A stretch of DNA of 64,000 nucleotides from Patescibacteria group bacterium (lineage in GTDB: Bacteria > Patescibacteriota > Microgenomatia > UBA10105 > UBA927): the NCBI GenBank assembly GCA_038062895.1, contig JBBTWJ010000005.1, forward strand, positions 131,715 through 195,714, in the 5' to 3' direction. Below, in pieces: positions 2,773-33,480 of this stretch. A program made the translations under genes and the position numbers. How positions within the stretch are numbered: the first letter of the stretch is position 1; every line of letters starts with the position of its first letter. The notes below the pieces were generated by a model. That model was not told the origin of the DNA and did no database searches. It saw only the letters and a program-made list of their open reading frames with translations.

Positions 2773-3519
2773 ATGACCGTTATCACAAGGGGGGAGTCGG
2801 TACAAAAGAGGACAGAACGAGCATCACAAGTGGTTTCACTCCTAAAAATATTCTATCCGAAGGCACAGATCGTTCTTCGATACACAAATTTCTGGGAACT
2901 ATTGGTTTCTGTTATTTTATCCGCTCAATGCACGGATGTGATGGTCAATAAGGTGACAGAAAGACTGTTTAAAAAATATCCAGCCTTTGGGGATTATCTG
3001 AAGGCTGATACTAAGGAGTTTGAACAGGATATTAAATCGACCGGCTTTTATCATAATAAAGCGAAGAATATCTTAGCCGCGGCAAAGCTCATTCAAGAAA
3101 AATTTAAAGGCGAGATACCCAGGACAATGGATGAAATGCTGACGATCCCGGGGGTGGCACGGAAAACTGCCAACGTGGTGTTGGGCAATGCGTATGGAAT
3201 TGTGGAGGGGATAGCGGTCGATACCCACGTCCTTCGTTTGAGCCAACGGTTGCGGTTGGTGGACCTGGAAAAGATTGGTGGAAAAAAGAAATTGCATTTC
3301 ACAAGGCCAGGACTTGCAGACACCAATGAGTTTATTGATTATAAAAAAGACGCCGATCCGGTGAAGATTGAGACGCAACTGATGGAGGTATTGCCAAGAG
3401 AAGATTGGTTCAACACTACCTATCTCCTCATAGATCATGGCCGTGCTGTGTGCAAAGCACAGAGTCCAAACTGCAGCCACTGCGTGCTCCAAAAGTTTTG
3501 CCCCTCCTCGCGGATTTGA
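2773..3519 (+). CDS. nth: endonuclease III (DNA glycosylase/AP lyase), with an internal insertion
   Basis: HhH-GPD core with the catalytic Lys region 'LxxIPGVARKTANVVL'. C-terminal 4Fe-4S ligands 'CKAQSPNCSHCVLQKFC' (C-x6-C-x2-C-x5-C). Confidence 0.85.
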   Translation: MTVITRGESVQKRTERASQVVSLLKIFYPKAQIVLRYTNFWELLVSVILSAQCTDVMVNKVTERLFKKYPAFGDYLKADTKEFEQDIKSTGFYHNKAKNILAAAKLIQEKFKGEIPRTMDEMLTIPGVARKTANVVLGNAYGIVEGIAVDTHVLRLSQRLRLVDLEKIGGKKKLHFTRPGLADTNEFIDYKKDADPVKIETQLMEVLPREDWFNTTYLLIDHGRAVCKAQSPNCSHCVLQKFCPSSRI

Positions 3520-3724
3520 TCATCGGCACAGCGGATTGTGCTTTCCCATTGGGTGTGGTATGCTTTGGCGATTGACGAAAGCCAGGTAGTGAAACTTCGA
3601 TCTTGCTTTGAAAGCAAGGAAAACATACTTGGTAAAAACAGTATTGATTGATTAATAAAGGAGGATTAGGACAAAAGATTTTTTTGGAAGAAACAAAAAA
3701 ATTATCGAAGTTCTACTACCTGGT

Positions 3725-4411
3725 ATGGCTACACGAAAATCTGCACAGAAAAAAACTTCAGTTAAACGAAATGTAAAAAAGAATGCATTGATGGCAGTTC
3801 CCCCCGCAGACGAAGCCCCACTCTCCGTGCCGGTAAAGCAAAAATTTAATACAAAAATCCTTTATCTCATTGTCGGGCTCCTTGCGCTGTCCGCCCTGCT
3901 TCTTGCTAATAAGAGCATGTTGGTAGCAGCGGTTGTGGATGGGCGGCCGGTGTGGAGCTGGGAACTCAACAGTGTGATGGCTGACCGCTACGGGAAACAA
4001 ACACTCGAGGGCATGATCAGCGAAAAGTTGATTGCCAGCGAAGCGAGAAAGCAGGGCGTGGTTATGAACCCCGAAGAAGTAAAGGCGCGGGAAGAAGAGA
4101 TCGTCAAAGGATTAGGGGGAGGCATGAGCCTCGAGGAAATTCTTAAGATCCAGGGACTCACCAAATCTGAATTTGACCGGCAGATTACGCTCCAGCTTAC
4201 GGTGCAAAAATTGCTTGGGAAGGATCTTGCCATCACGGATGCGGATGTGGATAATTTCATCGCGACCAACCGGGCGACGCTGGTGGCTACCGAAGAGGCG
4301 ACTCTTAAAACAGAAGCCAGACAGGCAATTCTGGATGCCTACATCGGAGAAAAGCTCCAGCCGTGGTTTAATGAGCTGAAAGAGAAAGCCAAGATACTTC
4401 GTTTTCTTTAA
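3725..4411 (+). CDS. SurA-N-terminal-domain-like periplasmic chaperone, membrane anchored (no PPIase domain)
   Basis: N-terminal TM helix then a SurA_N-like helical domain. The start codon is embedded in the conserved GAAGTTCTACTACCTGGTATG motif. Confidence 0.5.
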   Translation: MATRKSAQKKTSVKRNVKKNALMAVPPADEAPLSVPVKQKFNTKILYLIVGLLALSALLLANKSMLVAAVVDGRPVWSWELNSVMADRYGKQTLEGMISEKLIASEARKQGVVMNPEEVKAREEEIVKGLGGGMSLEEILKIQGLTKSEFDRQITLQLTVQKLLGKDLAITDADVDNFIATNRATLVATEEATLKTEARQAILDAYIGEKLQPWFNELKEKAKILRFL

Positions 4412-4412
4412 T

Positions 4413-4676
4413 ATGATGCCATGGTTTCTTGGGAATAGTAGTGGGATGAATTGGGACTGGTCATTGGGGTGGCAGATTAGTTTAGTTCCCCTCATGATTT
4501 GGTCTATGGCGTGGTCGGGACTCGCGCTTTGGCATGCGGCAAAGCGAGGCGAGAAATGGTGGTTTGTTCTCTTTCTCCTGGTTCACACCGTTGGAGTTTT
4601 GGAGATCTTTTACTTGGTGTTTGTCGTCAAACTTTTTGCCAACGCAAAACCTCCTCATAAAAAGAAACGGTCATAG
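4413..4676 (+). CDS. small integral membrane protein (2 TM helices), hypothetical
   Basis: Trp-rich hydrophobic ORF abutting the upstream stop. Basic C-terminal tail. Confidence 0.35.
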   Translation: MMPWFLGNSSGMNWDWSLGWQISLVPLMIWSMAWSGLALWHAAKRGEKWWFVLFLLVHTVGVLEIFYLVFVVKLFANAKPPHKKKRS

Positions 4677-4717
4677 ACCTGGCCCTCCGGCTTGCTGGGG
4701 GCAAGCAGAAATTATCC

Positions 4718-5764
4718 ATGAAAACCTGGCAGAAGTTAAAAGCGAACCCGGAACTTTGGGAACGGTACTTCGTCCGCGAAAAGGTCATCAAGGCGATCCG
4801 GCTATTTTTTGAAACGCAGAAGTTTCATGAAGTAGAGACACCGACCCTCATGGCTCACCCGCCTGCGGAATCGTATTTGGACGTTTTCCAAATGACGCTT
4901 CTAGACCGCAATCGAAAGGGGATCTCCGCCTACCTTTCCACGTCTCCGGAAGTAGCATTAAAAAAACTCATGACGGCTGGTTTGGGAAATTGCTACGCGC
5001 TTACCAAAAGTTTCCGCAACATGGAAACACAAGGAAATCTTCATAATCCAGAATTTACTATCCTCGAATTTTACCGTGTGGGAGCCACGTACCTTGACAT
5101 TATGAGGGACATCGAATCGCTGATGGTGTTTATCGCGCAGTCGGTACACAAGGATTCACTGGTCGTCACGTATCAAGGAACATCAATTGATCTCACGCCT
5201 CCATGGGAACGGCTATCGGTCGCCCAGGCATTTGAGAAATACGCTCATGTGGATTTCGAGAAATTTTTGGATGAGAAACAAGCGCGTGAAATTGCTAAAG
5301 AAAAAGGATATGCCGTTGAAGCGAATACAACCTGGGAACAACTCTATAACCAAATTCTTCTTAATGAAATTGAACCTTACCTGGGGCAGGGGAGGCCTAC
5401 GATTCTGTATGACTTCCCGTCTTCCATGGCGGCGTTGTCCAAGAAAAAAACGAGCGATCCGCGGTTTGCCGAGCGGTTTGAATTCTACATCGCAGGGCTC
5501 GAGCTCGGCGACTGCTATAGCGAGCTTACCGATTGGAAAGAGCAAGAAGTGAGGTTTGAGCGAGAGCTTAGCGAGCTGAGACGATTAGGTAAGACAGTTT
5601 ACGACTATGATCACGATTTTATCGAAGCTCTGAAAGTTGGACTACCGGATTGCAGCGGGATCGCCGTCGGCGTTGATCGGCTCATTATGCTCCTTAGTGA
5701 CGTCACCGATATCGCCGATACGCTTTTTTTTCCGGCCGGGGAGATGTTTACGTTTTCAACGTAG
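4718..5764 (+). CDS. epmA: EF-P--(R)-beta-lysine ligase (class II lysyl-tRNA synthetase paralog, GenX/PoxA)
   Basis: Class II aaRS catalytic core without an anticodon-binding domain. Motif 2 'FRNMETQGNLHNPEFTILEFY' and motif 3 'IEALKVGLPDCSGIAVGVDRLIMLL' closely match EpmA. Confidence 0.7.
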   Translation: MKTWQKLKANPELWERYFVREKVIKAIRLFFETQKFHEVETPTLMAHPPAESYLDVFQMTLLDRNRKGISAYLSTSPEVALKKLMTAGLGNCYALTKSFRNMETQGNLHNPEFTILEFYRVGATYLDIMRDIESLMVFIAQSVHKDSLVVTYQGTSIDLTPPWERLSVAQAFEKYAHVDFEKFLDEKQAREIAKEKGYAVEANTTWEQLYNQILLNEIEPYLGQGRPTILYDFPSSMAALSKKKTSDPRFAERFEFYIAGLELGDCYSELTDWKEQEVRFERELSELRRLGKTVYDYDHDFIEALKVGLPDCSGIAVGVDRLIMLLSDVTDIADTLFFPAGEMFTFST

Positions 5765-6947
5765 AGAGAGCGATCGTTTTTCGAAGCAACAATGCGAGGG
5801 CAAGCGGCAGGACGGGGAGGATATACAGCCAGTTTTTTGCCAGTTGAATTTCATTCCCGAACTGCAGAAAGATAAATAGTCCGATGAAACTTACGGTCCG
5901 GAATATTCCCAACACAATATCGCGTTCAAGAAGTAGGTGATATTTTTGCTGCCAACTTCCTTGGGCTTGGTCCAGCACGCCAAAGTAGACGATCGACAGT
6001 TTATTGTTAAATATCGGAACGGTGAGTCCGGAAATAATAATATACGCCCAGATCCCTAGCGGCGATTGATAAAATGCAAACACAATGATCGAGAGGGCAG
6101 ATCCAGCGACACCGATCCAATAAGCAGATGGGAACTTTGTGAGAAGCGGGATAGCATAGAGATTGGACACGATTGCAATCGTCGAAAATATCGTGAGCAC
6201 GAATCCCAGATCCGCTTCATTTTTCACTATGACGAAAAATAACACGCCCGTCACGGTGCCGAGGGCAATATCAAATAAACCCAGTACTGCATTTTGTCCC
6301 AGGATGAGTTTCCAACTGCGTGTCCGTTGATGGTCCAAGATGTGATGGTATGAAAAATCCAGTGATTCATGCGCGGGGAGTTTGCCGATGACAAAGATCG
6401 TGATGATATTGATGATGGCGACCAGAAAAAATAACAGGAGATAGCCGTTTGTAACACCGAGCGATGTTTTACCGACGGTGGTGATAATCAGTCCTCCGAT
6501 TGCCGGACCCATGGCGTTGGCAAGATTAAACACTGCCCCAGCCCACCCAAAATATGAGACCCGTCTTCCGGAATGGGCGAGAATATATTGATTGAGATTA
6601 TACGAAGCCCAAAAAAACCCACCGGAAAAACCGGAGAGAATGCCCAACGGGAAGACAAAGGCGATGCTTTGGTCTTTGAGAAAAAATAAGAGAAGATAAA
6701 ATATTGATCCGGCGACGAGACTCATTTTCATCATGGTACCGGAAGAGATATGCCGGAGTGCCCAACCGGACGCCCCATAGAAAAACGTCATGGAGGCAAA
6801 TGCCGCGATATTATAAAGCGTCGTGACCTTGAGATCTCCATGGGAAAAGAAAAAAACCGTGACGAAAATATTGGCCAGAGATCCGGCCAGGATATCTAAG
6901 CCCTGGATGAGAAGGAGCTTCCGTTCGTCGGGGGATAAATTCTTCAT
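5748..6947 (-). CDS. MFS-type transporter (12 predicted TM helices)
   Basis: Regularly spaced hydrophobic helices with Gly-rich loops typical of the major facilitator superfamily. Overlaps the epmA end by 17 bp in convergent orientation. Confidence 0.6.
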   Translation of the reverse strand: MKNLSPDERKLLLIQGLDILAGSLANIFVTVFFFSHGDLKVTTLYNIAAFASMTFFYGASGWALRHISSGTMMKMSLVAGSIFYLLLFFLKDQSIAFVFPLGILSGFSGGFFWASYNLNQYILAHSGRRVSYFGWAGAVFNLANAMGPAIGGLIITTVGKTSLGVTNGYLLLFFLVAIINIITIFVIGKLPAHESLDFSYHHILDHQRTRSWKLILGQNAVLGLFDIALGTVTGVLFFVIVKNEADLGFVLTIFSTIAIVSNLYAIPLLTKFPSAYWIGVAGSALSIIVFAFYQSPLGIWAYIIISGLTVPIFNNKLSIVYFGVLDQAQGSWQQKYHLLLERDIVLGIFRTVSFIGLFIFLQFGNEIQLAKNWLYILPVLPLALALLLRKTIALSTLKT

Positions 6948-7010
6948 GTTTAGTACTAGTATAGCGTACTGAGGCGCGGATCACGTGGTTCTTGACATAA
7001 ATCATGTCAA

Positions 7011-7295
7011 TTGATAGAATTGATAGATATGAATATAACTGTAAGTGCCATGGATGCACGCAAACGATTTGGAGAAATTTTAAATAGCGCCTTCTATCGG
7101 GGGATATCGACGGTCATTGAGCGCAAAGGTAAGCCTATCGCAAAAATTGTTCCGGTTTTAGATGACCGAGTCACGCCGGGCAAATCATTGTTGGCATACG
7201 CAGGCATGTGGAAGGACGACGGGGATATCCGGGCGATGAAAAAAGCAATTGCTCATATCCGTCGTTCTCCTGCGCGCGTCGTGAAGCCATTATGA
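7011..7295 (+). CDS. type II antitoxin, Phd/YefM family
   Basis: 'TVSAMDARKRFGEIL...ISTVIERKGKPIAKIVPV' Phd/YefM fold signature. Overlaps the downstream PIN gene by 4 bp (ATGA). Confidence 0.6.
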   Translation: MIELIDMNITVSAMDARKRFGEILNSAFYRGISTVIERKGKPIAKIVPVLDDRVTPGKSLLAYAGMWKDDGDIRAMKKAIAHIRRSPARVVKPL

Positions 7296-7690
7296 CGGTG
7301 CTTCTGGACACAAATATCCTTATCGATTTTTTTCATGATAGGCCGCGTTCGGTTGCCCTCCTCAAGTCGCTTGCGGAAAGCCAGTTTCGGATAAGCGTGT
7401 TAACCCTTATGGAGATCATGCATGGGGCATACAAGACGAAGACACCAGATCGCTACATCAGCGAATTTAAGAACTTTCTTACAGATTTTGGGGTGGAAAT
7501 TTGGTTGGTGGATGAAGAGGTTTCTCTGCGTTGCGGCGAGCTGATGGCTGCTCTGGAGAGCCGCGGAATACGATTGGGCGTGGTCGATGCGCTTTTGGCG
7601 GCAACTGCCCTCGTTCATACCTGTCCAATTGCCTCGGGTGACCGGGCGTTTCAAAAAATACCGGGACTTGAGGTATATCCAGCGACATAA
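7292..7690 (+). CDS. vapC: PIN-domain ribonuclease toxin VapC
   Basis: 'LLDTNILIDF' with N-terminal Asp and downstream conserved acidic residues. Classic antitoxin-toxin coupling with the upstream gene. Confidence 0.75.
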   Translation: MTVLLDTNILIDFFHDRPRSVALLKSLAESQFRISVLTLMEIMHGAYKTKTPDRYISEFKNFLTDFGVEIWLVDEEVSLRCGELMAALESRGIRLGVVDALLAATALVHTCPIASGDRAFQKIPGLEVYPAT

Positions 7691-7886
7691 TGAGCCCTCT
7701 GCGTTGCGGTTTGATTGAGTTTTTGGGATAATAGAGGCACTCCCCAGGATCGGGAGTTTTTCATAGGGATCGTCCGTAAACAACTTCCTAGGTGTTTACG
7801 GTTACGGCCCTTTGTGCCGCATCTTCAAAGAAAATAACGATAAAGATATTTTTGGATGCGGCCATTGGAGTACACTTTAGATATAT

Positions 7887-8450
7887 ATGTCAACTATTTC
7901 CACAGCAGAATTTAGAAAAGGCGGGGTTATAGAATTCAAAAGCGAGCCGCACACGATCGTCGAGTTTACCCATGTCAACCCGGGGAAGGGGAGTGCATTT
8001 GTGCGCACGCGCCTCAAATCCCTCAAGACCGGAAAAGTGCAGGACTTCACCTTCAAATCCGGAGAGAACGTCACGGAAATATCCGTTGAAACCCACGAGG
8101 CCCAGTATTTATATAAAGAAGGAGTCAGTTACGTCTTCATGGAGAACTTCACCTATGAGCAGTATCAAGTGAGCGAAAGCGTGTTGTCTGATTACCTTTC
8201 ATATATTAAACCCAACGATACGTATCAACTTTTGGTCCATGAGGAAGAGGTGTTGGGACTCCGGTTTCCCAAAAAAGTCCGGCTTCTCGTGACGCAGGCC
8301 AGCGAAGGCGCGCGCGGGGATACCGTCGCCGGAGCCGGGAAAGTGGTGACCTTGGAGACGGGTGCCACTGTCACGGTGCCACTTTTTATCAAAGAAGGGG
8401 ATACGATTGCCCTCGACACGGAGACCGGACAGTATTTGGAGAGAGCATAG
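7887..8450 (+). CDS. efp: translation elongation factor P
   Basis: Full-length EF-P with the 'NPGKGSAF' loop carrying the conserved modifiable Lys. KOW and OB domains present. Confidence 0.9.
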   Translation: MSTISTAEFRKGGVIEFKSEPHTIVEFTHVNPGKGSAFVRTRLKSLKTGKVQDFTFKSGENVTEISVETHEAQYLYKEGVSYVFMENFTYEQYQVSESVLSDYLSYIKPNDTYQLLVHEEEVLGLRFPKKVRLLVTQASEGARGDTVAGAGKVVTLETGATVTVPLFIKEGDTIALDTETGQYLERA

Positions 8451-8703
8451 ATTGTACGGGTCGCGCCGTTCTTGCTTCAGGAATCAGTTTTTTTGGCCGC
8501 TCGATTGACTTCTCCTATATAATAATTATTCCCCTCTCGCTAAATGAATCCCGCCAATAAAAAGTTGATCCAGATTGTATTAGCTGTACACAGCGGGATT
8601 CAGGTTGCCAAAAAAACTGTTCCTTACGCATTCGCGTTTTTTGTCGTGACGGCACTTCGAAACGACTCGCTGCCCTGCGCGTAAGGGGTGATAGAATGAG
8701 CGT

Positions 8704-9246
8704 ATGAAACGGTGGGTGAAATATGGGGTGATTTTTATTCTCGGCGGGTTGAGTGCATTGGGATACAATTTTTCTTCGGCTCCGATAAAACAAACAGTGA
8801 TTTCAGAGGGAGTGGCGACGCATTCTGCGGTCGTTGTTTCCGGAGGAGAAATAGCGGTCGTGGGTCGGGTGATTGACGGGGATACGATTGAGCTAATCGA
8901 CAAACGGAAAGTCCGGTACATCGGAGTAGATACCCCGGAAAGCGTGGATCCGAGGAGAACCGTGCAATGTTTTGGAAATGAAGCGAAGGAGGAGAACCAA
9001 AGACTCGTAGAAGGGAAGACTGTACGACTTGAGAAAGACATTTCTGACACGGATAAATATGGGAGACTCCTTCGATATGTATATCTTAGTGATGTATTCA
9101 TCAATGACTATTTAGTGCGTCAGGGCTTTGCGCGCATTGACACCGTCCCGCCGGATGTGGCGCACCGTGAACAGTTTTTCGCTTCCCAACAAGAGGCGAG
9201 GAATGAATTGCGTGGATTCTGGCAAAGCTGTGGCGCCCGCGAGTGA
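8704..9246 (+). CDS. thermonuclease (staphylococcal nuclease/SNase-fold), secreted or membrane anchored
   Basis: N-terminal signal/anchor, then the SNase core 'VIDGDTIEL...RYIGVDTPE...RLLRYVY'. Confidence 0.8.
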   Translation: MKRWVKYGVIFILGGLSALGYNFSSAPIKQTVISEGVATHSAVVVSGGEIAVVGRVIDGDTIELIDKRKVRYIGVDTPESVDPRRTVQCFGNEAKEENQRLVEGKTVRLEKDISDTDKYGRLLRYVYLSDVFINDYLVRQGFARIDTVPPDVAHREQFFASQQEARNELRGFWQSCGARE

Positions 9247-9300
9247 ACCACCCTCTCTCTTGTGCTGTCGTCATTTCCTTCGTAGACTGGTGCTATACCC

Positions 9301-10461
9301 ATGAGAAAATTTCTTGCCCGCATTCCTTATTTATCCATACTGGTTATTTTTAGTGTGCTATCGGTCGGGGGATTGGTCTATGCATATCAGATGATAGGGA
9401 GTCTAAACAATAGCATTGCTTCAGAACAAAAACAACTTGATGAGACGAAGCAAACCTTAGTGACAGTCCAAAGCGAAGACCAGTACGTAAAAAATAAAAC
9501 ACTAGAGGCGACCATAAGTGCAATAGAAAAAACATATGGCACGACCGTGAAGATGTATGAGGAAGTCCTTTCGCTCAAAGAGTTTACAAAAGACGGAACG
9601 ATATTTGATGGATCCATTTCCGCGGTGTTGACGTTCCTCTCTAAACGTGAGTATGCGTCTGCCTCCGCGATGCTTGATACTATTGCGCGGGACACCAAAG
9701 CGCTCCGCGCAAAGCTCGCAAGCCAAGCTCAATCAATACCGGCAAATGTCGTAGCGGACAATACGCTTCCGGGGGGAGGATTTCGTAGGCAGTCGGTAAA
9801 AAATGAGTTTGGTACGTATCTCGTCGATGTGATTGCCGCGGACCTTTCTTCAACAAGGGCGATAGTCGATACCGCATCGGATAAGGATTGTGGAAATGAC
9901 TGTCCGACGCTGTCCCTGGGAGAATATGTATCCCGAAACGGAGGATACGCCGGGGTAAACGGCTCATACTTCTGTCCGAAAGAGTACCCGAGCTGCGCCG
10001 GGAAGACGAATACCTTTGATACGCTCCTCATGAATAAAAATAAAACGTACTTTAACTCCGATAATAATGTTTACAGCACCGTGCCGGCAGTGATATTTTT
10101 GGGGGGATCTGCCCGGTTTGTGGGAAAGTCGCTCGAATGGGGGAGAGACACGGGAGCTGATGGAGTGCTGGCCAATCAGCCATTGCTTCTCATGGGTGGT
10201 AACGTCCAGTTCGGCGGCGATGATGATCCGAAGAAAGGCTCGAGGGGGTCACGAAGTTTCGTGGGGAGCCGGGGGAGCACGGTGTATATTGGGGTTGTCC
10301 ATGGCGCGACGGTCGCGGAGGTCGCCCATGTGCTCAAAGCGATGGGAGTGGAAAATGCGATTAATCTGGACAGTGGAGGGTCGGTGGCACTCTGGTACAA
10401 TGGATATAAAGCAGGACCTGGGAGAAATATTCCCAATGCGATAGTACTAGTAAGAAGATAA
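9301..10461 (+). CDS. phosphodiester glycosidase-family protein (NAGPA-like), membrane anchored
   Basis: N-terminal TM helix and coiled-coil region. C-terminal domain ends with the family motif 'AINLDSGGSVALWYNG'. Confidence 0.5.
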   Translation: MRKFLARIPYLSILVIFSVLSVGGLVYAYQMIGSLNNSIASEQKQLDETKQTLVTVQSEDQYVKNKTLEATISAIEKTYGTTVKMYEEVLSLKEFTKDGTIFDGSISAVLTFLSKREYASASAMLDTIARDTKALRAKLASQAQSIPANVVADNTLPGGGFRRQSVKNEFGTYLVDVIAADLSSTRAIVDTASDKDCGNDCPTLSLGEYVSRNGGYAGVNGSYFCPKEYPSCAGKTNTFDTLLMNKNKTYFNSDNNVYSTVPAVIFLGGSARFVGKSLEWGRDTGADGVLANQPLLLMGGNVQFGGDDDPKKGSRGSRSFVGSRGSTVYIGVVHGATVAEVAHVLKAMGVENAINLDSGGSVALWYNGYKAGPGRNIPNAIVLVRR

Positions 10462-10619
10462 CAGGATTTATGCCAGGTAGTAGAAACTCGATACAAAATT
10501 TTATCCGATTTTAAAATCATGATTATAAATACAATGATTGTCGAGTCCAAAATAGTGCTATAAATCTTGAAAATTTTGTTTCCTCGCTAAGGCGAGGGAT
10601 CGAGTTTTCACTACCTGGT

Positions 10620-12104
10620 ATGCCGGAAGAATTTTTTGAAGTCTTAAGCAATCATGCGACGCCGCCGGTCTACCGTCATTTCAATGGAAAAGAATGGGTG
10701 GAGAGTGCGAGTGGAAAGACCGTCGAGGTTCGTTCTCCCATTGATGACAGCGTGGTGGGCGTCCTCCAAGTGGTGACCACGGGGGAAATTGACGCGGTAA
10801 TGATGGCTGCTAAAACAGGACAGGTGAAATGGGAAGCGACTCCCCTCAATCAGCGGGTGAAGATCATGCATCTCTCTGCCGACTGGATCCGGCATTTTGA
10901 AGAATATCTCACGACACTGCTTGCCCGCGAAATTGGCAAGACGACAGGAGAGGCTAAAAGTGAGATTGTCAGAACAGCTGACCTCATCGATTACTACGCC
11001 GATGAGGCTCAATCGATGCGTGGGGAGACTCTGGATAGCGATAATTTCCCGGGATACGACAAAGGACGGATCGGACTCATCGAGCGCGTGGCGTGGGGAA
11101 CGGTTCTGGCGATCGCTCCATTTAACTACCCCGTCAATTTATCGGCAAGCAAAATTGCCCCAGCACTTCTGATGGGAAACAGCGTTGTTTTTAAGCCACC
11201 GACACAAGGTGGCATCAGTGCTCTCCATCTCGTGCAAGCATTTCTCAAAGCCGGTGTCCCGGAAGGAGTGCTCACCTGCGTGACCGGGACGGGCGCGGAT
11301 ATTGGTGATTATCTCGTTTCTCATACGGGCATCGACTGTATTACTTTTACGGGAAGTTCTGATACCGGAGAGGCGATAGCCAAGCATGCCGGTATGAAGC
11401 CGTTAGTGTTTGAGTGCGGCGGCAATAATCCGGCTTTAGTCCTCCCTGACGCGGATATGAATCTCACGGCCCGCGAGATTATCAAAGGCGCATTTTCCTA
11501 TGCCGGGCAGCGGTGTACGGCGATAAAATACATCCTTGCCATGCCCTCGACGATGGAACAATTATTGCCGGTGTTACGCAAAGAGTTTGGGGAATCAGTG
11601 AAGATGGGTGACCCCCGCAGTCCGGAAACGAAAATGGTGGGGCCGGTCATTTCTGTGGGAGCTGCCGAACACATCCAATCGCTTATCGATGAGACGGTGA
11701 AGGCAGGAGCCAAGATTGTGTCCGGAGGGAAAAGAAATAATGCTTACATTGAACCCACGATTCTTTCCGGTGTCCGGCCGGAGATGCCGGCAGTCGCTCA
11801 GGAAGTGTTCGGGCCGGTGGTCTCACTCATTACCGTCAAGGATGTGAGCGAAGCCACGGGGATCATTAACGCGTCGCGATTTGGACTTCAGGCTTCTGTG
11901 TTCACAAAAGATGAGGGAGCGGGGATAGTCGTTGCTAAACAGTTGAGCGTCGGAACCGTGCAAATTAATGGGAGCCCACAACGCGGTCCCGATCACTTCC
12001 CATTCTTGGGCGTCAAACGATCAGGATTAGGCGTGCAAGGGGTACGGTATTCTCTGGAAGAAATGAGCCGCTTGCGGCCCATTGTCATCAATAAGCCGCA
12101 GTAA
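10620..12104 (+). CDS. gapN: NAD(P)+-dependent aldehyde dehydrogenase, non-phosphorylating GAPDH (GapN)-like
   Basis: ALDH superfamily with catalytic Glu in 'VFECGGNNP' and catalytic Cys in 'YAGQRCTAIKY'. Start codon is embedded in the conserved ...CACTACCTGGTATG motif. Confidence 0.75.
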   Translation: MPEEFFEVLSNHATPPVYRHFNGKEWVESASGKTVEVRSPIDDSVVGVLQVVTTGEIDAVMMAAKTGQVKWEATPLNQRVKIMHLSADWIRHFEEYLTTLLAREIGKTTGEAKSEIVRTADLIDYYADEAQSMRGETLDSDNFPGYDKGRIGLIERVAWGTVLAIAPFNYPVNLSASKIAPALLMGNSVVFKPPTQGGISALHLVQAFLKAGVPEGVLTCVTGTGADIGDYLVSHTGIDCITFTGSSDTGEAIAKHAGMKPLVFECGGNNPALVLPDADMNLTAREIIKGAFSYAGQRCTAIKYILAMPSTMEQLLPVLRKEFGESVKMGDPRSPETKMVGPVISVGAAEHIQSLIDETVKAGAKIVSGGKRNNAYIEPTILSGVRPEMPAVAQEVFGPVVSLITVKDVSEATGIINASRFGLQASVFTKDEGAGIVVAKQLSVGTVQINGSPQRGPDHFPFLGVKRSGLGVQGVRYSLEEMSRLRPIVINKPQ

Positions 12105-12162
12105 ATCGAGAAAATGCTTTCTCGGGATCAGCACACTAGCGTTATCGATTACTTTATTTAAT

Positions 12163-12194
12163 AGACAAAATAAACCACGTGGTGTATTTTGTCA
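12163..12194. repeat. 32-bp near-palindromic direct repeat, copy 1 (AGACAAAATAAACCACGTGGTGTATTTTGTCA)
   Basis: Exact 32/32 match to 12966..12997. Core CACGTG palindrome with flanking inverted arms AAAATA/TATTTT. Confidence 0.9.
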
Positions 12195-12262
12195 TCTTTC
12201 CTTGAGAGCTTTTTGATTTTATTCTATCTTTAATGGTAATGAGTGGGAGATTCCAGAAGTAT

Positions 12263-12962
12263 CTAGACATCAAAGAAATCGCGGAAGCTTTGGTCGTTTT
12301 CAATCGCAGCTACGCGGAATATTCGGACGTATTTCCCGATCCCTAGATATTCACGAAGAAATATGAGTTCTTTGACGCATGGATATGCGTGAAGGTACAT
12401 ACTCTCGTGTAGGGGATAGAACCGCCAGACGCGAAGATATTCACGGAAATATGTACGAAGGTGATCCAGGGCGCGTGGTATATCATAGCTGACGAGACAC
12501 CACGTTTCGTCCCAGCGTGCGGGTTTTTCTATAGTGATTTCATCAAGCGCATATTTGAGTACGCGCCGTTTTCCGTTTTGTGTGAGCGTGATAACGTCGG
12601 CGTCACCTTCTTTGGAAATTTGTACAAGCTTTGCTTGCTCAAGGCGCGCGAGGGTGCGTTTGAGGTAGCTTAAGTTAAAGCGCTTCCATGTTGGGTCATC
12701 GTCATTATGATGAGTATTCAGAAATGGCTTGAGGACCATGGGGAGAGTGGGGAAGGCAAGCGAGGCAGCGATGAACGCTCCGGCGCCGACGAGTTTGAGC
12801 ACCAGTGCGACTTTTGCATATTTTTCTGTCCGTTCTTGGCGATCTATCTTATGAAGAAGTGATTGGCAAAGCGTTGCGATTTCTGCTTCCGTTTTTTCGG
12901 TAAGCGGCAGGTTTTCAATTTTTTGTTTAGGCTTTCTTGGACGAACTCGAAGCGAATTCATG
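12263..12962 (-). CDS. membrane-anchored protein with a PaaX-C-terminal-like domain (hypothetical)
   Basis: 'WDETWCLVSYDIP...LRxxLxxxxFYPLHESMYL' resembles the PaaX_C domain. One TM helix. Start taken at the internal Met at 12962 because the upstream part of the long ORF overlaps the repeat and looks non-coding. Confidence 0.45.
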
Positions 12963-12965
12963 GTA

Positions 12966-12997
12966 GAGACAAAATAAACCACGTGGTGTATTTTGTC
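12966..12997. repeat. 32-bp near-palindromic direct repeat, copy 2
   Basis: Identical to 12163..12194. Lies immediately upstream of the PaaX-like gene start. Confidence 0.9.
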
Positions 12998-13092
12998 AAG
13001 ATTACTGAGATTACAGAAATGGGGAGATAAGATCCAGCACATTGGCGCCCGGCCATTGATTTTCAGAGAGAGTGAGAGTACTCTAGGTGTTG

Positions 13093-13755
13093 ATGGTTGG
13101 ACTTGACCAAAAAGCGGAAATTTCTCCAATACTTCCCGAGCCCACGGAATCGGTTCTTGGTGGAGTAGGGGACGGGAGACCTCGCGTGTCTTTCGGAATA
13201 ATATTAGGTCAGAGAGCAGCAGAGGACCCTACGCCCGTACAGCAAAAAATTTTCGATATTTCCCATCCCAAAGTACGCTACCGTTTAGCGCAGAGCGTGC
13301 ACTATTGGGATCATGCAACGGGTGGCCAAAAAGTTGCTCCGGGGTTTGAAACGATTACCTATGCAAATGATAGAGGTGTTATTGTTATAGATCCATTCTC
13401 TGAACGGACAAGCGATATCATGCAGCCCGAAGAGTTTGCGAGACAAACGGCGAACAGCGATGGCGTTTTTTCTTTGGATTTGGCAACCGCGCGGCATACA
13501 TTTAGAGTAAGGAATCCTTCTATTTTTCCTTTCGTTAAGGAGGCATTTAATGCGGTAGAAGAACTTCTTTTTCATGGACAGAGTATAGCAGCGTTGGAAA
13601 CATATGATGGAGATCTAAGCCGATCAGAGTTAGAGACCCTTAAGTCGCGAAGAATGAAGCTTTTATTCAAGAGAGATTGGGATTTTGACCCAAAGAGTAA
13701 GCAGCCAAAGCAAAAATGGGATTGGAAACCTCAATATCCACAGATTAAATTTTAA
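13093..13755 (+). CDS. hypothetical protein
   Basis: Long ORF with no recognised motif. The first ATG is at 13093, and the ORF tool used a GTG at 13087. Confidence 0.3.
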   Translation: MVGLDQKAEISPILPEPTESVLGGVGDGRPRVSFGIILGQRAAEDPTPVQQKIFDISHPKVRYRLAQSVHYWDHATGGQKVAPGFETITYANDRGVIVIDPFSERTSDIMQPEEFARQTANSDGVFSLDLATARHTFRVRNPSIFPFVKEAFNAVEELLFHGQSIAALETYDGDLSRSELETLKSRRMKLLFKRDWDFDPKSKQPKQKWDWKPQYPQIKF

Positions 13756-13774
13756 TTTGTAGTAAATTATCGTT

Positions 13775-13795
13775 TTATTCCCACTCCATAGTCGC
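13775..13795 (-). other. diverged duplicate of the guaA 3' end (encodes ATMEWE-stop)
   Basis: The reverse complement reads gcg act atg gag tgg gaa taa, matching the real guaA terminus gcc acc atg gaa tgg gag tag at 13844..13864. A 47-bp hairpin-containing spacer separates them. Confidence 0.6.
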
Positions 13796-13843
13796 CGGGG
13801 GCTTGCCCCGCACCAGGCGGTGCGGGACTGCGCAGGTTTATCA

Positions 13844-15367
13844 CTACTCCCATTCCATGGTGGCAGGCGGCTTGGTGGTGATGTCGTAGACAACTCTGGA
13901 GACATTGGGGACTTCGTTGACGATGCGGGAAGAAATCTTGGCGAGCACGTCATAGGGGATGCGCGTCCATTGGCTGGTCATAATATCTTTTGACTCGTAT
14001 GCGCGGATAGCGACGACTTCGGCAAAAACTCTTCCATCACCCTTTACGGCTGTAGAATACGCGCCAGTCATGACAGCGAAGCATTGAAAAACCTTGTTGT
14101 AGAGTTTGGCGGTCCTCATTTCTTCGACCACGATACTATCAGCAATCTTGACTTGATCGAGACGAATAGGGCTGACTTCTCCTCGGACGCGTACCGCGTA
14201 ACCGGGGCCGGGGAACGGCTGTTCGCCCACGATATCCTCCGGCAGCCCCGCGAGGCGACCTAACTCGCGCACCTCGTCTTTATAAAAATTCCGTAAAGGC
14301 TCGAGGAGTGTGAGCTTCATGTCTTTAGGCAGGCCACCAACGTTATGGTGGGATTTGATATGGGAGGCGTGGCGGCTTCCTTTACTTTCGATCACGTCGG
14401 AGTAAATCGTTCCCTGGCCCAGAAATTTTGCGTCCTGATGCTTTATTGCCTGTTCCTGAAAAATATCGATATAGAGTTTGCCAATAGTTTTTCTTTTGAT
14501 TTCCGGATCAGTGACTCCCTTGAGTGCATCCATAAATCGTTTTTTAGCGTCGATAATGACTAAATTAGCGTGAATAAGCTTAGTGAAGATGTGACGCACC
14601 CGTTTATCTGTATCAGGCCGCATCAGACCACTCTCAACATAAACGGGAATTAAGTTTTTCCCAATTGCTTTACCGATGAGAAATGCCACGACGGTCGAAT
14701 CCACGCCACCGGAAACTGCGCAGATGACTTTACTATTATCAACAGTTTTTTTAATCGAGCCAATTATGCTTTTGGGATTTAATACAAAAGGAGAGAGAGT
14801 CTCGCCGCAGACGTCGACGGCGAAGTTTTTCAATAGTTCGGCTCCGTGTTCGGTATGATCCGCTTCCGGGTGAAATTGGACCCCAAATAATTTTTCTTTT
14901 TCGTTAATAACTGCGGCATATCGCACTTGCTTGGTCGATCCCATTGCCGTAAATCCCTTTGGCAGCTTTGTGACGGTGTCGCCGTGAGACATGATGACGG
15001 TGCCGGAATGTAATTTCATAAGGTACTTCCTTGCAGGATTGCAAGGAAGTACCTTGAAAAACTCCGGACCGTATTCTTTTTTCGAGTGTTTGACCGCGCC
15101 TCCCAACAGATGCGCCATGAGTTGCCAGCCGTAGCAGATTCCTAACACCGGCAGACCGAGCTTGAATATCTGTCTATCAACGGAAAGAGAGGCGTCGTGG
15201 CTGATATCGTTGGGGCCGCCGGAGAGGATAATTCCTTTTGGATGTTTCGTCTTGACGGTAGCTAGTGCGTCTTCGGGATCGGAATATTCGACGGCGACAC
15301 CGAGAGCGCGGAGACGGCGGCCGATGAGGTGGGCAGTTTGGCTCCCAAAATCGATGATGAGGATCAT
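13844..15367 (-). CDS. guaA: GMP synthase (glutamine-hydrolysing)
   Basis: Class I glutamine amidotransferase with catalytic Cys in 'GICYGWQ', an ATP-PPase 'SGGVDS' P-loop, and a C-terminal dimerisation domain. Start at the internal Met (MILIIDFG). Confidence 0.9.
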   Translation of the reverse strand: MILIIDFGSQTAHLIGRRLRALGVAVEYSDPEDALATVKTKHPKGIILSGGPNDISHDASLSVDRQIFKLGLPVLGICYGWQLMAHLLGGAVKHSKKEYGPEFFKVLPCNPARKYLMKLHSGTVIMSHGDTVTKLPKGFTAMGSTKQVRYAAVINEKEKLFGVQFHPEADHTEHGAELLKNFAVDVCGETLSPFVLNPKSIIGSIKKTVDNSKVICAVSGGVDSTVVAFLIGKAIGKNLIPVYVESGLMRPDTDKRVRHIFTKLIHANLVIIDAKKRFMDALKGVTDPEIKRKTIGKLYIDIFQEQAIKHQDAKFLGQGTIYSDVIESKGSRHASHIKSHHNVGGLPKDMKLTLLEPLRNFYKDEVRELGRLAGLPEDIVGEQPFPGPGYAVRVRGEVSPIRLDQVKIADSIVVEEMRTAKLYNKVFQCFAVMTGAYSTAVKGDGRVFAEVVAIRAYESKDIMTSQWTRIPYDVLAKISSRIVNEVPNVSRVVYDITTKPPATMEWE

Positions 15368-15368
15368 A

Positions 15369-15563
15369 TTAGTTGAGCCTTTCTGGATGTTTGACGTTAT
15401 TATCGCGATCAGCCCGTTGGGCCGGTGAAGGATCCGCATCTCGTTTTAAGTATTCATCCGGGTCACTTTTGCCGACTATTTTGGCACGCTCTTCTTCGAG
15501 CACTTCGTCAAGTGTCGCTTTTCTTGGTGTTGTTTTGTTTACCAGTGGACTTTCGGTGCTCAT
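15369..15563 (-). CDS. small acidic hypothetical protein, stop-start coupled to guaA
   Basis: 64-codon ORF whose stop abuts the guaA ATG and whose start abuts the upstream PRTase stop. Highly charged, with no recognisable motif. Confidence 0.25.
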   Translation of the reverse strand: MSTESPLVNKTTPRKATLDEVLEEERAKIVGKSDPDEYLKRDADPSPAQRADRDNNVKHPERLN

Positions 15564-15565
15564 GG

Positions 15566-16213
15566 TTATGGCTTAATAACGACTGTATCATGTTTGCCGA
15601 TTTCGATAACGTGGATGCAGGAGTAGACCTTGATGCCGAGCTTGGCAACTTCCTCCAGTCCCCCTTGGAATACTTTATCAAACAGTACCGCAAACCCGGC
15701 GACTTTGACCCCGCGCTTGAGGAGTCCTTCGATGATTGAAGAGCCCGTCCCGCCGGTTGCGCAGACGTCGTCAACCAACAGCACGCGGTCATGGGGCAAC
15801 ACAAACGAAAGGTTGATGCCGGAGAACACCGTCATGCCACTATTACTTGTGGTAAATGACCGCGTTTCGGCGCGGAAAATATCTTTCCAGGTGGTTGGGA
15901 CATTTTGATCTTTGCGGGAACTATGGAGCCGGAGCGAGGGATTGTCCAGAGCAAGAGCAACGGCGGTGGCCAAGTAATTGCCGGAGTGGGGGATGCCATG
16001 GACGATATCAATTTTTTCATCTTTAAATTCGTGAGCGATCAGACGCGCAGCAGCAGCCAAAACAGAAGGCTTCATGCGAAGGTTAAAGGATGAGGCGGAA
16101 ACGTATCCACGCTCGAGATCAATGACTTTGGCATCGCGGAGGAATTCCTGGTGGAGAAAGTCGCGATCCTTTTTCAGATCTTCTGGAGCCATGTTACAGT
16201 ATACCACTTTCAC
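15566..16213 (-). CDS. type I phosphoribosyltransferase (orotate/adenine PRTase-like)
   Basis: PRPP-binding motif 'VLLVDDVCATGGT'. About 215 aa, the PyrE/Apt size class. Confidence 0.55.
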   Translation of the reverse strand: MKVVYCNMAPEDLKKDRDFLHQEFLRDAKVIDLERGYVSASSFNLRMKPSVLAAAARLIAHEFKDEKIDIVHGIPHSGNYLATAVALALDNPSLRLHSSRKDQNVPTTWKDIFRAETRSFTTSNSGMTVFSGINLSFVLPHDRVLLVDDVCATGGTGSSIIEGLLKRGVKVAGFAVLFDKVFQGGLEEVAKLGIKVYSCIHVIEIGKHDTVVIKP

Positions 16214-16532
16214 CTTTATTTTCTTGCAGCGCTGCTATGGTTTGTTGAGCTGCTACGATTCTTTCATAAACTGGACCACAAGCACGTGCGGTGTTTATTT
16301 TTCCTGAATTTACTAGCATGGTAAGTTCAGCGGTTGTGAGCGTGCAAGGACCAGGCCATGCACCTGAACAAAAAGGAACACACGAAGGGTCGCCGTTTGG
16401 AACGGGACATCCCTCGACAACGACAACAGGATCTGATGTGACATCGATAGATATCACGCTACCCAAATTATCAGAAAGGAGAATATAAGAGTCTGTTCTT
16501 ACAAGGGCGGGATCTGCATCAAGTTTTTTCAT
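16194..16532 (-). CDS. hypothetical Cys-rich small protein
   Basis: 112-codon ORF overlapping the PRTase start by 20 bp. 'CPVPNGDPSCVPFCSGAWPGPC' Cys cluster. No family recognised. Confidence 0.3.
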   Translation of the reverse strand: MKKLDADPALVRTDSYILLSDNLGSVISIDVTSDPVVVVEGCPVPNGDPSCVPFCSGAWPGPCTLTTAELTMLVNSGKINTARACGPVYERIVAAQQTIAALQENKGESGIL

Positions 16533-16957
16533 GAAATGCTAGTAACGACGTGCTATCGAGGTCCCAAGTTTTTAATATGTTTTATTTTGTTGTCTCTGCG
16601 AGCGTAGCAGCTTCGTCCTCTTGTGAAATTGTTGGTTGCCATAAAATCCTTGGTGGCCAAGTCCATTCAACGAGAACGCCAGCTGCGGGAATGGGGATTA
16701 GCGTTACTTTTTTTGCAGTGGGTAACGGTGTCCTATCGGGGAGACGGAGGTCGCCGGGGTTTTGCATTCCTAGTCGTGTATCTGCAGACATTATATCTCC
16801 TTTTCTGCGCCGGAAATTGTAGTTATATGAATATCACTATCCACCACATCTCGTGCACTCGCCTTACCTACTATTCGTAGCGCGGCTCGTGCTCTCGATT
16901 GTTGGTGGATTGATGGTTACTAAGCTCGTGAATAAGTATTCACTCGCAAAGTAACCA

Positions 16958-16990
16958 ACAAAAAAAGGGCGCGTGTCTAGCCCTATAAGG
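16958..16990 (-). terminator. rho-independent terminator (GGGCTAGACACGCGCCC + T7 on the minus strand)
   Basis: GC-rich hairpin followed by seven T on the minus strand, downstream of the minus-strand PRTase genes. Confidence 0.6.
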
Positions 16991-17034
16991 AGAGAATAGA
17001 GGATAACAAGAGGGAACGTCAAGGGGTTGATTTT

Positions 17035-17070
17035 AAAGCCGAGCTTTCAAATGGCAAAGCTCGGCTTTGG
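17035..17070. terminator. bidirectional terminator hairpin (AAAGCCGAGCTTT-loop-AAAGCTCGGCTTT)
   Basis: Perfect 13-bp inverted repeat with A/T flanks, 5 bp after the stop of the gene at 17075. Confidence 0.65.
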
Positions 17071-17074
17071 GGTT

Positions 17075-17794
17075 CTATTGCCGGACGAGGGAGAACCAGG
17101 CGTCAAAGCCGTTAAGCTTGAGTTTGCCGGGGCGCATAGAGTCGATGGAGAGAAGTGAGATGATTTGAGAATCGGAAAATCCTGCTTCTTTGAGTTTTTC
17201 GCGTCCACCAAACGGCTTTTCGATGACATAGCAAAACCCAACAGGTATAGCTTGGGCTTGCGCGACGATTTGGAGAAGATCAATAGCGGTTTTGCCGGTA
17301 TCCAAAAAGTCGTCGCAGATGAGGACGCGCGCCCCTGCGGGGAGGCAGTCTTTGGCGACGGTGAGATCGACGGACTTGCCGTGGGTGTACGATCGGCTCA
17401 TCGCATGATACGCATTATCGATGGTAATGGGCTGTCCTTTGGGCGCATAGACTACATCAGGAATTGGGGAAAGGTGGATGGCTGTAGCGATCGCGGGGAT
17501 ATTGCCCGATGAAGGGGCGGTAAGAATGATGTCCGGTTGGAGGATAGTTGCCAACGCCGCGAGTTCTTCTCCTATGGCCATAATAAGTTTCGTATTAATG
17601 CGGTGATTGAGGAAATGGGTGACATCTAAAACGAGAAAGCTTTGGTCGCTATCGCTTGGCGAGTAGGTGAACGACCGGGATTGGGCGACGAGCGAGGAGG
17701 CTAAAAGTTTTTGTGCACGGGAGAGAAGAGAAGAGGAGATGGTTTGTAATGCGTCTTTGGGTTCGAGGATGGGTAGGTCCGGGTAGTCATTCAT
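17075..17794 (-). CDS. phosphoribosyltransferase-domain protein with N-terminal extension (xanthine/adenine PRTase- or PurR-like)
   Basis: PRPP loop 'ARVLICDDFLDTGKTA' preceded by an ~80-aa N-terminal region. Confidence 0.5.
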   Translation of the reverse strand: MNDYPDLPILEPKDALQTISSSLLSRAQKLLASSLVAQSRSFTYSPSDSDQSFLVLDVTHFLNHRINTKLIMAIGEELAALATILQPDIILTAPSSGNIPAIATAIHLSPIPDVVYAPKGQPITIDNAYHAMSRSYTHGKSVDLTVAKDCLPAGARVLICDDFLDTGKTAIDLLQIVAQAQAIPVGFCYVIEKPFGGREKLKEAGFSDSQIISLLSIDSMRPGKLKLNGFDAWFSLVRQ

Positions 17795-17797
17795 ATA

Positions 17798-18376: not shown

Positions 18377-18458
18377 GCGTTATTATCTCGTGGTCCTTGA
18401 CGGATGTCAATATGACCTTATAATAGGAACATGCCGCGTAGTGAAACTTCAGAAGATT

Positions 18459-18728: not shown

Positions 18729-18744
18729 AGTTCTACTACCCGGT

Positions 18745-19362: not shown

Positions 19363-19374
19363 TAAAATATCTTC

Positions 19375-25193: not shown

Positions 25194-25227
25194 GCGAGTA
25201 AAGCGAGTCGAAGGATCTTAAAAATAC

Positions 25228-33471: not shown

Positions 33472-33480
33472 CCTGTTGGC

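Follow-up and report, generated by a model that had tools for sequence, protein, structure and literature searches.

The REPINs and the IS200/IS605 insertion sequences (IS; HUH/Y1 transposase) leave no target-site duplication (TSD) behind, and the site beside which they insert is a fixed tetra- or pentanucleotide. The Correia/nemis elements of Neisseria have no known cognate gene, duplicate TA, share homologous interiors and are co-transcribed as hairpins, which can be processed and are able to alter expression. Phage homing enzymes of the Seg and I-TevI type are GIY-YIG proteins of 200-250 aa with a DNA-binding domain and home to an allelic site, and burial of the start codon by a hairpin is common in selfish nuclease genes. 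Closest to the subject of this study are the Ssn enzymes, ~94-aa single-domain GIY-YIG nucleases that cut single-stranded DNA (ssDNA) only, site-specifically and beside a cognate hairpin repeat (NTS/SRM), which is found on both sides of the gene and dispersed in the genome, almost never inside genes; the authors themselves pointed out the IS-like 'repeat-gene-repeat' layout and the analogy with REP/RAYT (Chenal et al. 2025, Nat Commun, PMC11893778). Here we describe a family of miniature elements of the Candidate Phyla Radiation (CPR, Patescibacteria), three units of which were found in a 64,000-nt stretch, hereafter the window, of a Patescibacteria contig (JBBTWJ010000005.1). A 22-nt motif that ends in the start codon of three unrelated genes of this window is, with a probability of about 0.75, the right terminal inverted repeat (TIR, ~19-20 bp) of such an element together with the adjoining 4-bp TSD, (T)ATG. 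Our confidence in this structural identification, as the inverted-repeat (IR) end plus TSD of a mobile unit associated with a GIY-YIG nuclease, is high; it is moderate to low with regard to the identity of the mobilising enzyme and the cause of the start-codon bias.

A sequence-only reading of the window had noticed three near-identical copies of about 22 nt, each ending in the ATG of its gene (SurA-like, gapN-like and kinase-like), and all three were confirmed at those positions. With up to one mismatch allowed, CTACCYGGTATG occurs three times in the window against 0.15 expected, and none of 100 dinucleotide shuffles attained three copies. Each copy closes on the first possible start codon of a long open reading frame (ORF), and no Shine-Dalgarno (SD) sequence can be read within 15 nt 5' of the three ATGs, as had been stated. 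The start of the SurA-like ORF is the least certain of the three: an in-frame ATG lies 22 codons downstream, at 3791, and none of the public gene calls has exactly this product. That the motif is a shared cis element rather than chance is upheld. Its link with start codons is general in other genomes: an ATG closes about 52 of the 68 units that bear a nuclease or belong to the window, and in most cases it opens an ORF of more than 60 codons. The core TACCYGGTA is a palindrome, as proposed, but by itself shows no enrichment, with 18 matches where 13.2 are expected.

The inverted copies on the other strand had been overlooked (left members of the arm pairs in Table 1). A looser motif search placed such copies beside two of the three sites, a repeat search returned an inverted partner for all three, and a profile of the arms (nhmmer) detected exactly six in the 64 kb, forming three pairs with no others. 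The idea that the copies are parts of larger duplicated segments thus holds in part, in that each is one arm of an IR unit of 142-310 bp and has a duplicated target site as its ATG. This ATG represents a TSD on the host start codon and does not belong to a promoter or to a ribosome-binding module, and unrelated genes seem to share a 22-nt leader ending in ATG because the elements sit on start codons and duplicate the ATG. The original finding is therefore real, while its functional reading is largely replaced.

Evidence for the pairing of the arms was obtained from 62 units, in which 92.1% of the 20-bp arm stem is paired; shuffling of the partners gives 77.8%, and none of 500 shuffles reached the observed value. 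Sliding the partner arm by one column reduces pairing to below 50%. The arms are 19-28 bp long and pair with each other, not internally. Double-sided changes were found in 16 of the 20 base pairs of the stem, and the supposed palindrome varies freely (CCAGG/CCTGG, CCGGG/CCCGG, CCCCG/CGGGG, CCTAG/CTAGG) with complementarity kept from arm to arm, and a restriction-modification target (site CCWGG) was rejected on this ground. The two central pairs behave differently, each being Watson-Crick in just 1 unit, with G.U or A.C in all but ~3 of 61 distinct units. They form a tandem in which one pair is G.T and the other A.C; the left arm supplies both purines, as GA in 43 units and as AG in 17, and both orders are present in the window (GA in units 1 and 3, AG in unit 2). 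The G.T/A.C tandem makes the two ends, and the hairpins of the two strands, distinguishable. The GA and AG arm variants could in principle be inversion isomers in the case of units without an ORF; an inverton was considered and rejected, as there is no invertase and the orientation of full elements is in every case that of the host gene.

Units 1 and 2 of the window are ORF-less members with interiors of ~100 nt, comparable to REPINs or to MITEs (miniature transposable elements with inverted repeats), whereas unit 3 is a full copy of ~310 bp. Its 89-aa product consists of a single domain, PF01541 over residues 3-68 (E=2.2e-18), and retains the GIY/YIG tyrosines, the RR..EH motif and the REK glutamate in alignments with Ssn-type proteins. 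More than 1,100 homologs were found, with up to 92% identity, the named ones among the best 120 all being CPR, and an identical gene is present in NCBI assembly GCA_964357735.1 and in Hainich aquifer assemblies; the window itself is most likely Gottesmanbacterial and of groundwater origin. The window nuclease is 41-43% identical (49-52 bits; pairwise E 2e-14 and 3e-15) to two proteins, Rhizobium WP_020920629 and Azospirillum WP_014249537, the genes of which have exact SRM hairpins CGTCATCCCCGCGAAGGCGGGGATCCAG on both sides; comparison with UPF0213 structure 1zg2 gave 24 bits only. Judged by these sequence similarities, the CPR nuclease is homologous to the Ssn-type ssDNA nucleases and likely belongs to the Ssn clade proper (cd10448).

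For comparison, 80 homolog-bearing loci (loci are numbered with the prefix L throughout, those from metagenomes included) were taken from one-genome-per-species GTDB contigs, spanning Gottesman-, Pacei-, Doudna-, Wolfe-, Buchanan-, Moran-, Zambryski-, Kaiser-, Yanofskybacteria and others. In ~65-67 of them, arms of the same family bracket the nuclease ORF on both sides within 0-25 nt, with 0-9 nt from the end of the left arm to the nuclease ATG and 0-25 nt from its stop to the right arm, giving nuclease-bearing units of 305-330 bp in total. The subtypes of the arms, represented by the GTAGTGAAAC, GTAGTAGAAT, GTAGAGAAAT and CAACTTCC types, track the lineages of the nuclease. A cluster of variant arms (CTACCTGCC) was seen at L142. 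Many records of metagenome-assembled genomes with these CPR-type loci (L010, L012, L014, L015, L017 and others) are titled 'uncultured Gammaproteobacteria' or 'Candidatus Saccharibacteria', labels which are probably placeholders or wrong.

Insertion is indicated by the flanks of the units. In the genome set these are identical over 4 bp in 38 of 62 units, against a mean of 14 and a maximum of 22 after shuffling, TATG being the commonest (21 units) and ATGA occurring in 10. To avoid a starting bias towards the nuclease or the ATG, metagenome contigs were additionally searched with the arm alone (GAAGTTCTACTACCYGG), which produced at least 119 matches; no partner arm was found in 73 of the 119 matches listed, these being probably chance matches in coding DNA or contig edges. 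The matches listed include 39 distinct paired units, with an exact direct repeat of 4 bp in 22, repeats of 3 bp in 8 and of 5 bp in 3, and none in 6. The repeats among them are TATG (11), ATGA (3), TTGA (3) plus TCAA, CTTG (2), GAGG/CCTC/CTC/GAG (5), TTTT/AAAA (5) and CATA, and the scan as a whole yielded at least 10 different TSD sequences. A duplication whose length is nearly constant but whose sequence varies is the mark that insertion at a staggered cut leaves. Among the window units, unit 2 is flanked by a perfect TATG...TATG and unit 3 by CATG...TATG, and the left copy of unit 1 has been lost.

Other evidence comes from sites with and without the element. The L017 gene carries it as TATAATctgatcATGA|element|ATGAGCGCT (in longer form catggTATAATctgatcATGA|element|ATGAGCGCTGATGAG), whereas L011, a 69%-identical ortholog, has the uninterrupted sequence TATAATctaactcATGCAATCG (longer, catgcTATAATctaactcATGCAATCGGCAGAT). 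A reciprocal pair was found in L028 and L040: a 576-aa gene has the element on its start codon in L028 and lacks it in L040, and the 90-aa gene before it is occupied at its start codon in L040 and empty in L028. L014 and L017 have elements with 94.7% DNA identity that lie at different genes with different TSDs, one TATG and the other ATGA; the flank therefore comes from the target and not from the element. The L012 ortholog (62% identity) of the window aldehyde dehydrogenase has a full nuclease-bearing element at the junction that in the window is occupied by the ORF-less unit 2.

All 68 nuclease-bearing or window units are co-oriented with the nuclease, and in the arm-scan set nearly all TATG and ATGA duplications are at ORF starts. 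The other duplications also fall on expression signals. GAGG is the SD box 8 nt 5' of a start codon in L106 and L172 and, on the other strand, in L092 and L121; in L166, L176, L129 and L203, TTGA opens a -35 hexamer TTGACx, of which it makes up the first four bases, and a -10 box follows ~17 nt downstream; and duplicated T-runs (flanks TTTT, TTTG/TTT, AAA) are the tails of intrinsic-terminator-like hairpins at the short units of the metagenome loci L111, L132 and L188. The duplication regenerates the signal beside the gene in every such case. This placement may result from targeting, for example to transiently single-stranded DNA, or it may be survivorship in genomes whose short spacers are almost all signals. 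ATG sites are strongly over-represented, which suggests that (T)ATG(A) is preferred to at least some degree.

The sequence 5' of the left ATG looks like the original start of the host gene. A match of at least 5/6 to TATAAT, 4-9 nt upstream, is present at 30% of left ATGs, against 14.5% of first-ATG ORF starts in the same loci and 4.4% of random ATGs, and SD-like motifs are rare (about 10-11%) for left ATGs and ORF starts alike in the CPR loci sampled, across which leaderless-type starts appear to be common. At unit 3, the TATAAT of the host promoter ends at 18424, 6 nt before the left ATG, with a predicted leaderless-type +1 at the A in 18431; this promoter lies outside the motif, 320 nt 5' of the ATG considered in the first reading. 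The divergent hpt-like gene next to it (17798-18376, - strand) has TTGACA-17-GATAAT (18376-18410) ending 5 nt before its ATG and is leaderless-looking too.

These data bear on the proposal that the 22-mer is a leaderless-mRNA promoter, a translation-initiation module, a regulator site or a restriction-modification site common to unrelated genes, which we now regard as very improbable. All three copies do abut a start codon without an SD, leaderless-type promoters are common at these genes, and the leaderless idea was correct insofar as a -10 box often stands 6-7 nt 5' of an ATG. That ATG, however, is the left copy, outside the motif, so that the -10 box is 145-320 nt away from it. The right arm has no SD and no usable -10 hexamer, the hexamers 7-13 nt 5' of the right ATG (TCTACT, TTCACT) lacking at position 2 the A that is essential there; for want of an acceptable -10 hexamer, a promoter pointing outward from the right arm was likewise rejected. 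The same arm also occurs away from start codons, with TSDs GAGG, TTGA, TTTT and others, and the 'palindrome' is variable and covaries with a distant partner arm.

At the RNA level, the start region of the unit 3 nuclease gene forms an inner stem (18/18 bp) with its VKEHNL codons. This stem is kept in 46 aligned elements, and its outer pairs covary through amino-acid-changing substitutions (AAG/CTT, CG/CG, TTG/CAA, CTG/CAG); pair 30/135, for instance, is UA in 15, AU in 13 and CG in 6. The inner stem buries the nuclease AUG, which points to low, controlled expression. A third long-range stem (18624-18649 / 18708-18733, +; 26 nt, 85%), between the DAKRREK codons and the 3' end of the ORF (FSLRFA), belongs to the Gottesmanbacteria-type element, being visible in L013 and L017 and not in Paceibacterota-type elements. 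Ribosome bypassing or shunting between matching codons of the two arms was rejected, the left and right NGG codons being complementary and not identical.

The predicted folds of all three window units are far more stable than those of shuffled sequences (z from -6.6 to -8.0), with both strands equally good: unit 1 (3580-3725) reached -46.9 kcal/mol (z=-6.7) and unit 2 -51.4 kcal/mol (z=-7.8). It could accordingly be supposed that the unit is a regulatory cassette acting in RNA, the arms forming a 20-bp mRNA stem which controls stability, RNase III processing or downstream translation, with mobility incidental or ancient. We judge this improbable. In its favour are the stability of the folds (z=-6.7, -7.8 and -7.1), the arm stem abutting the start codon, the interiors with hairpins capped by GNRA- or UUCG-like loops, and the inner stem, which clearly acts in single strands, hides the nuclease AUG and covaries; the Neisseria Correia elements, MITE hairpins cut by RNase III, offer a precedent. 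However, the arm stem is strand-symmetric, and its few C.A mismatches would be T.G wobbles on the antisense strand and would not wobble in the mRNA; since both strands also fold equally, the arm stem cannot be assigned to mRNA over ssDNA. Furthermore, the TSDs, empty sites and different host genes show arrival by insertion, units at -35 boxes or terminator ends would be outside the mRNA of the gene, and no Rfam family matches: a scan of 3000-19500 against Rfam 15 at E<=1 was empty, and in the neighbourhood of the units nothing reached the gathering score.

Paired arms in the 1.85 Mb of sequence fetched fall into discrete size classes, being separated by 10-60 nt (30 pairs), 85-125 nt (34) or 245-320 nt (63), with one pair at 341 nt. 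No arm pair 400-100,000 nt apart was found in the 1.85 Mb, and thus no IS-sized element with these ends was seen; the sole protein associated with the arms there is the GIY-YIG nuclease. The raw paired matches listed in the arm scan comprise 19 mini and 19 short units against 8 of full size. The ORF-less interiors are mostly unrelated in sequence apart from a few families (L019/L016/L015, two L063 copies, and L130/L181), and each has a stable GC-rich hairpin with a GAAA-, AAAG- or TTCG-type loop adjoining one arm. In unit 1 this hairpin is CTTGC-TTTGAAA-GCAAG, beside the left arm and followed by an A/T-rich stretch, and its interior has no homology to the GIY-YIG gene or to unit 2; in unit 2 it is CCTCGC-TAAG-GCGAGG, beside the right arm, the interior also containing an extended -10-like TGCTATAAAT. 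Derivation of the ORF-less interiors from the nuclease gene by deletion was rejected, no similarity being found by alignment or short-word BLAST. Units can also abut in tandem and (nearly) share an arm, an ORF-less unit being followed by a full one at L063:3037-3488 and L070:9820-10240. L130, L181 and L100 (a 228-aa ORF after a mini unit) were considered as sources of orthologs of the unit 1 gene, which they are not.

This size distribution is relevant to a further explanation, in which a conventional transposase, its gene lying elsewhere, moves a MITE family that has the arms as its ends, and the GIY-YIG gene is a mere passenger, for example a selfish homing-type nuclease inside a MITE. TSDs of 4 bp and TIRs of 20 bp are classical for MITEs of DDE transposons, the arm scan has ORF-less units at least as often as full ones, and GIY-YIG enzymes are hydrolases and are not known as transposases. 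We nevertheless hold this explanation to be unlikely: arm pairs 400-100,000 nt apart are missing from the 1.85 Mb, about 65 of the 80 nuclease homologs, from very different CPR classes, have arms directly at the ORF, the arm subtypes follow the nuclease, and the related Ssn family has the same association of gene and cognate repeat.

The CPR element resembles Ssn in its ~90-aa single-domain GIY-YIG protein, the cognate repeat on both sides and the dispersed ORF-less copies of this repeat, hardly any of which fall within genes. It differs in that the SRM is a local hairpin of 20-50 nt, often in doublets, whereas in CPR there is one half-site per side, pairing across 20-270 nt; the SRM consensus HGTCWY..RNCYNB gave 4 regex hits per 1.4 kb in two proteobacterial controls, but 6 in the whole 1.18 Mb of CPR loci and 0 in the window. 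The 4-bp TSDs, the shared orientation of unit and host gene, the location at start codons, at SD boxes and at -35 boxes and the start-sequestering stem are absent from the Ssn report (PMC11893778), a term search of which returned no Patescibacteria, start codon or target site. In the open literature on GIY-YIG proteins with inverted repeats or in Patescibacteria that report was the sole relevant match, subscription-only literature not being covered. By analogy, the CPR element may be of the Ssn/repeat kind in its working and a minimal transposon in its look, that is, a variant with its own repeat.

With REP/REPIN-RAYT it shares a small nuclease-type gene flanked by its own short repeats, non-autonomous inverted doublets in intergenic DNA and suspected recognition of a folded strand; the RAYT protein, though, is an HUH tyrosine enzyme while the CPR protein is GIY-YIG, and, unlike REPINs and IS200/IS605, the CPR units make duplications of 3-4 bp of variable sequence. 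Correia/nemis elements are similar as units of 60-150 bp with TIRs of 20-26 bp and short TSDs just 5' of genes, but the CPR family has an autonomous-looking nuclease form, mostly unrelated interiors and discrete size classes. Phage homing GIY-YIG genes of the Seg and I-TevI type are likewise selfish genes between host signals in which an mRNA hairpin over the start codon limits translation, but they are without IR ends, TSDs or ORF-less derivatives.

We tentatively propose, at somewhat less than even odds, that there is a class of minimal transposon, not recognised before, which has the 89-residue GIY-YIG nuclease as its only protein; that this protein reads the two ends as one folded hairpin with an obligatory G.T/A.C tandem and inserts, with a 4-bp duplication and perhaps into transiently single-stranded DNA, by preference at the 5' edge of expression signals (start codons of genes that are often leaderless, SD boxes, -35 boxes, terminator T-tracts); and, as part of the same proposal, that regeneration of the signal by the duplication renders the element nearly harmless in gene-dense CPR genomes. 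Independently of this proposal, the full form, of ~310 bp, has the structure [TSD][arm][89-aa Ssn-like GIY-YIG nuclease gene][arm][TSD] and integrates with duplication of 3-4 bp. By analogy with SsnA, the GIY-YIG protein may mobilise the units, the arms being recognised as folded ssDNA and the invariant G.T/A.C tandem marking the strand or end. The great majority of retained copies are placed exactly on the host start codon in the orientation of the host gene, and the host ORF remains intact because the inserted element duplicates the ATG. Transcription of the element would start from the host promoter, which is often of the leaderless type and has its +1 at the left ATG, with the hairpin that sequesters the start codon keeping the nuclease low. 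Translation of the host ORF would then begin at the right ATG, either through reinitiation or coupling once the nuclease ORF has been read, or following cleavage or other processing of the arm stem. The nuclease stop is 17 nt before the right ATG in unit 3. In ORF-less units neither reinitiation nor coupling after a nuclease ORF, nor stem processing, is evident as a route to host translation.

Several points weigh against the identification of the motif as the end of such a mobile element. Unit 1 keeps no left ATG or TSD, its left flank being AAAG, and most ORF-less interiors resemble neither one another nor the nuclease gene, unlike those of classical deletion-derived MITEs. Copies in one genome are not very similar (80% between L007a and L007b), and no presence/absence polymorphism was found in the population of the window, all contigs with the aldehyde dehydrogenase or kinase-like gene having the same spacing, including five other assemblies of this population at the kinase-like junction; activity is therefore old or rare, and movement has not been recent in this population. 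A hydrolytic GIY-YIG domain of 89 aa alone cannot perform strand transfer, so that host repair or ligation or an unseen partner would be needed, and a transposase farther away is possible, as genome fragments were examined. The units have TSDs, which transposition of ssDNA in the manner of IS200/IS605 does not leave. Finally, the characterised Ssn enzymes (PMC11893778) cut ssDNA only, from which a 4-bp duplication does not obviously follow.

The coordinates of the units and of the features around them are collected in Table 1.

Table 1. Inverted-repeat-bounded units of the window, their parts and adjoining host features
Feature	Position	Strand	Evidence and remarks
Unit 1, IR-bounded	3582-3723		
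Unit 1 arm pair	3582-3601 / 3704-3723		Repeat search; 102 nt between
Unit 1 left arm CCAGGTAGTGAAACTTCGAT	3582-3601	+	IR of 20 nt, 90% complementary; nhmmer E=0.0024
Unit 1 interior, 102 nt, no ORF	3602-3703	+	Sequence and RNA fold
Unit 1 right arm ATCGAAGTTCTACTACCTGG, bulk of the motif first noticed	3704-3723	+	Repeat search, nhmmer
Unit 1 right flank TATG, target-site copy	3724-3727	+	ATG 3725-3727 is first start of SurA_N_3 ORF 3725-4411
Unit 2, IR-bounded	10473-10618		
Unit 2 arm pair	10470-10492 / 10599-10621		Repeat search; 106 nt between
Unit 2 left TSD TATG	10469-10472	+	7 nt past stop of NAGPA-domain gene 9301-10461
Unit 2 left arm CCAGGTAGTAGAAACTCGAT, 'AG' central-mismatch variant	10473-10492	+	IR of 23 nt, 87%; nhmmer
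Unit 2 interior, 106 nt, no ORF	10493-10598	+	
Unit 2 right arm ATCGAGTTTTCACTACCTGG	10599-10618	+	Repeat search, nhmmer
Unit 2 right TSD TATG	10619-10622	+	ATG 10620-10622 is sole possible start of aldehyde dehydrogenase (Aldedh) ORF 10620-12104
Host promoter TTGACG-16-TATAAT, unit 3	18397-18424	+	Promoter scan, 11/12 matches
Unit 3, IR-bounded	18434-18743		
Unit 3 arm pair	18430-18452 / 18725-18747		Repeat search; 272 nt between
Unit 3 left target-site copy CATG	18430-18433	+	3/4 identical to right TATG
Unit 3 left arm CCGCGTAGTGAAACTTCAG	18434-18452	+	IR of 23 nt, 83%; nhmmer E=7.5e-4
Unit 3 inner stem, 5' half AAGATTATGTTCTTTTAC	18453-18470	+	Holds nuclease start codon
GIY-YIG nuclease gene, 89 aa, Ssn-like	18459-18728	+	Pfam PF01541
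Unit 3 inner stem, 3' half GTAAAAGAACATAATCTT	18540-18557	+	Codes VKEHNL
Unit 3 right arm CTGAAGTTCTACTACCCGG	18725-18743	+	Overlaps nuclease stop TGA 18726-18728
Unit 3 right TSD TATG	18744-18747	+	ATG 18745-18747 is start of cytidylate-kinase-like ORF (to 19362)

The three units and their host genes are all on the + strand. GC skew is positive in every 4-kb bin of the window (1-64000), the cumulative skew climbing monotonically, which places all of it on a single replichore, the + strand being the leading one. Elsewhere in the window, an AdoCbl-II (cobalamin) riboswitch aptamer (Rfam RF01689, 44.2 bits against a gathering score of 36.5) was found at 25220-25298 (+), 5' of + strand ORFs, and ARAGORN predicted a tRNA-Ile with anticodon UAU, an uncommon bacterial way to read AUA, at 33400-33473 (+).

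If this account of the units holds, the element explains and accounts for the recurrent 'conserved leader' of CPR genomes, in which these units should be masked by gene callers and in motif scans. Many leaderless-type promoters of CPR bacteria would now be split from their ORFs by a structured insert, which raises the question of how translation starts. The many natural pairs of nuclease and target, with the arm co-varying with the protein, would be available for the ssDNA tools that have been proposed for Ssn enzymes. At ~310 bp, the full form would be among the smallest autonomous-looking mobile elements known, and its TSDs and empty sites would constitute direct genomic evidence of mobility for the Ssn family.

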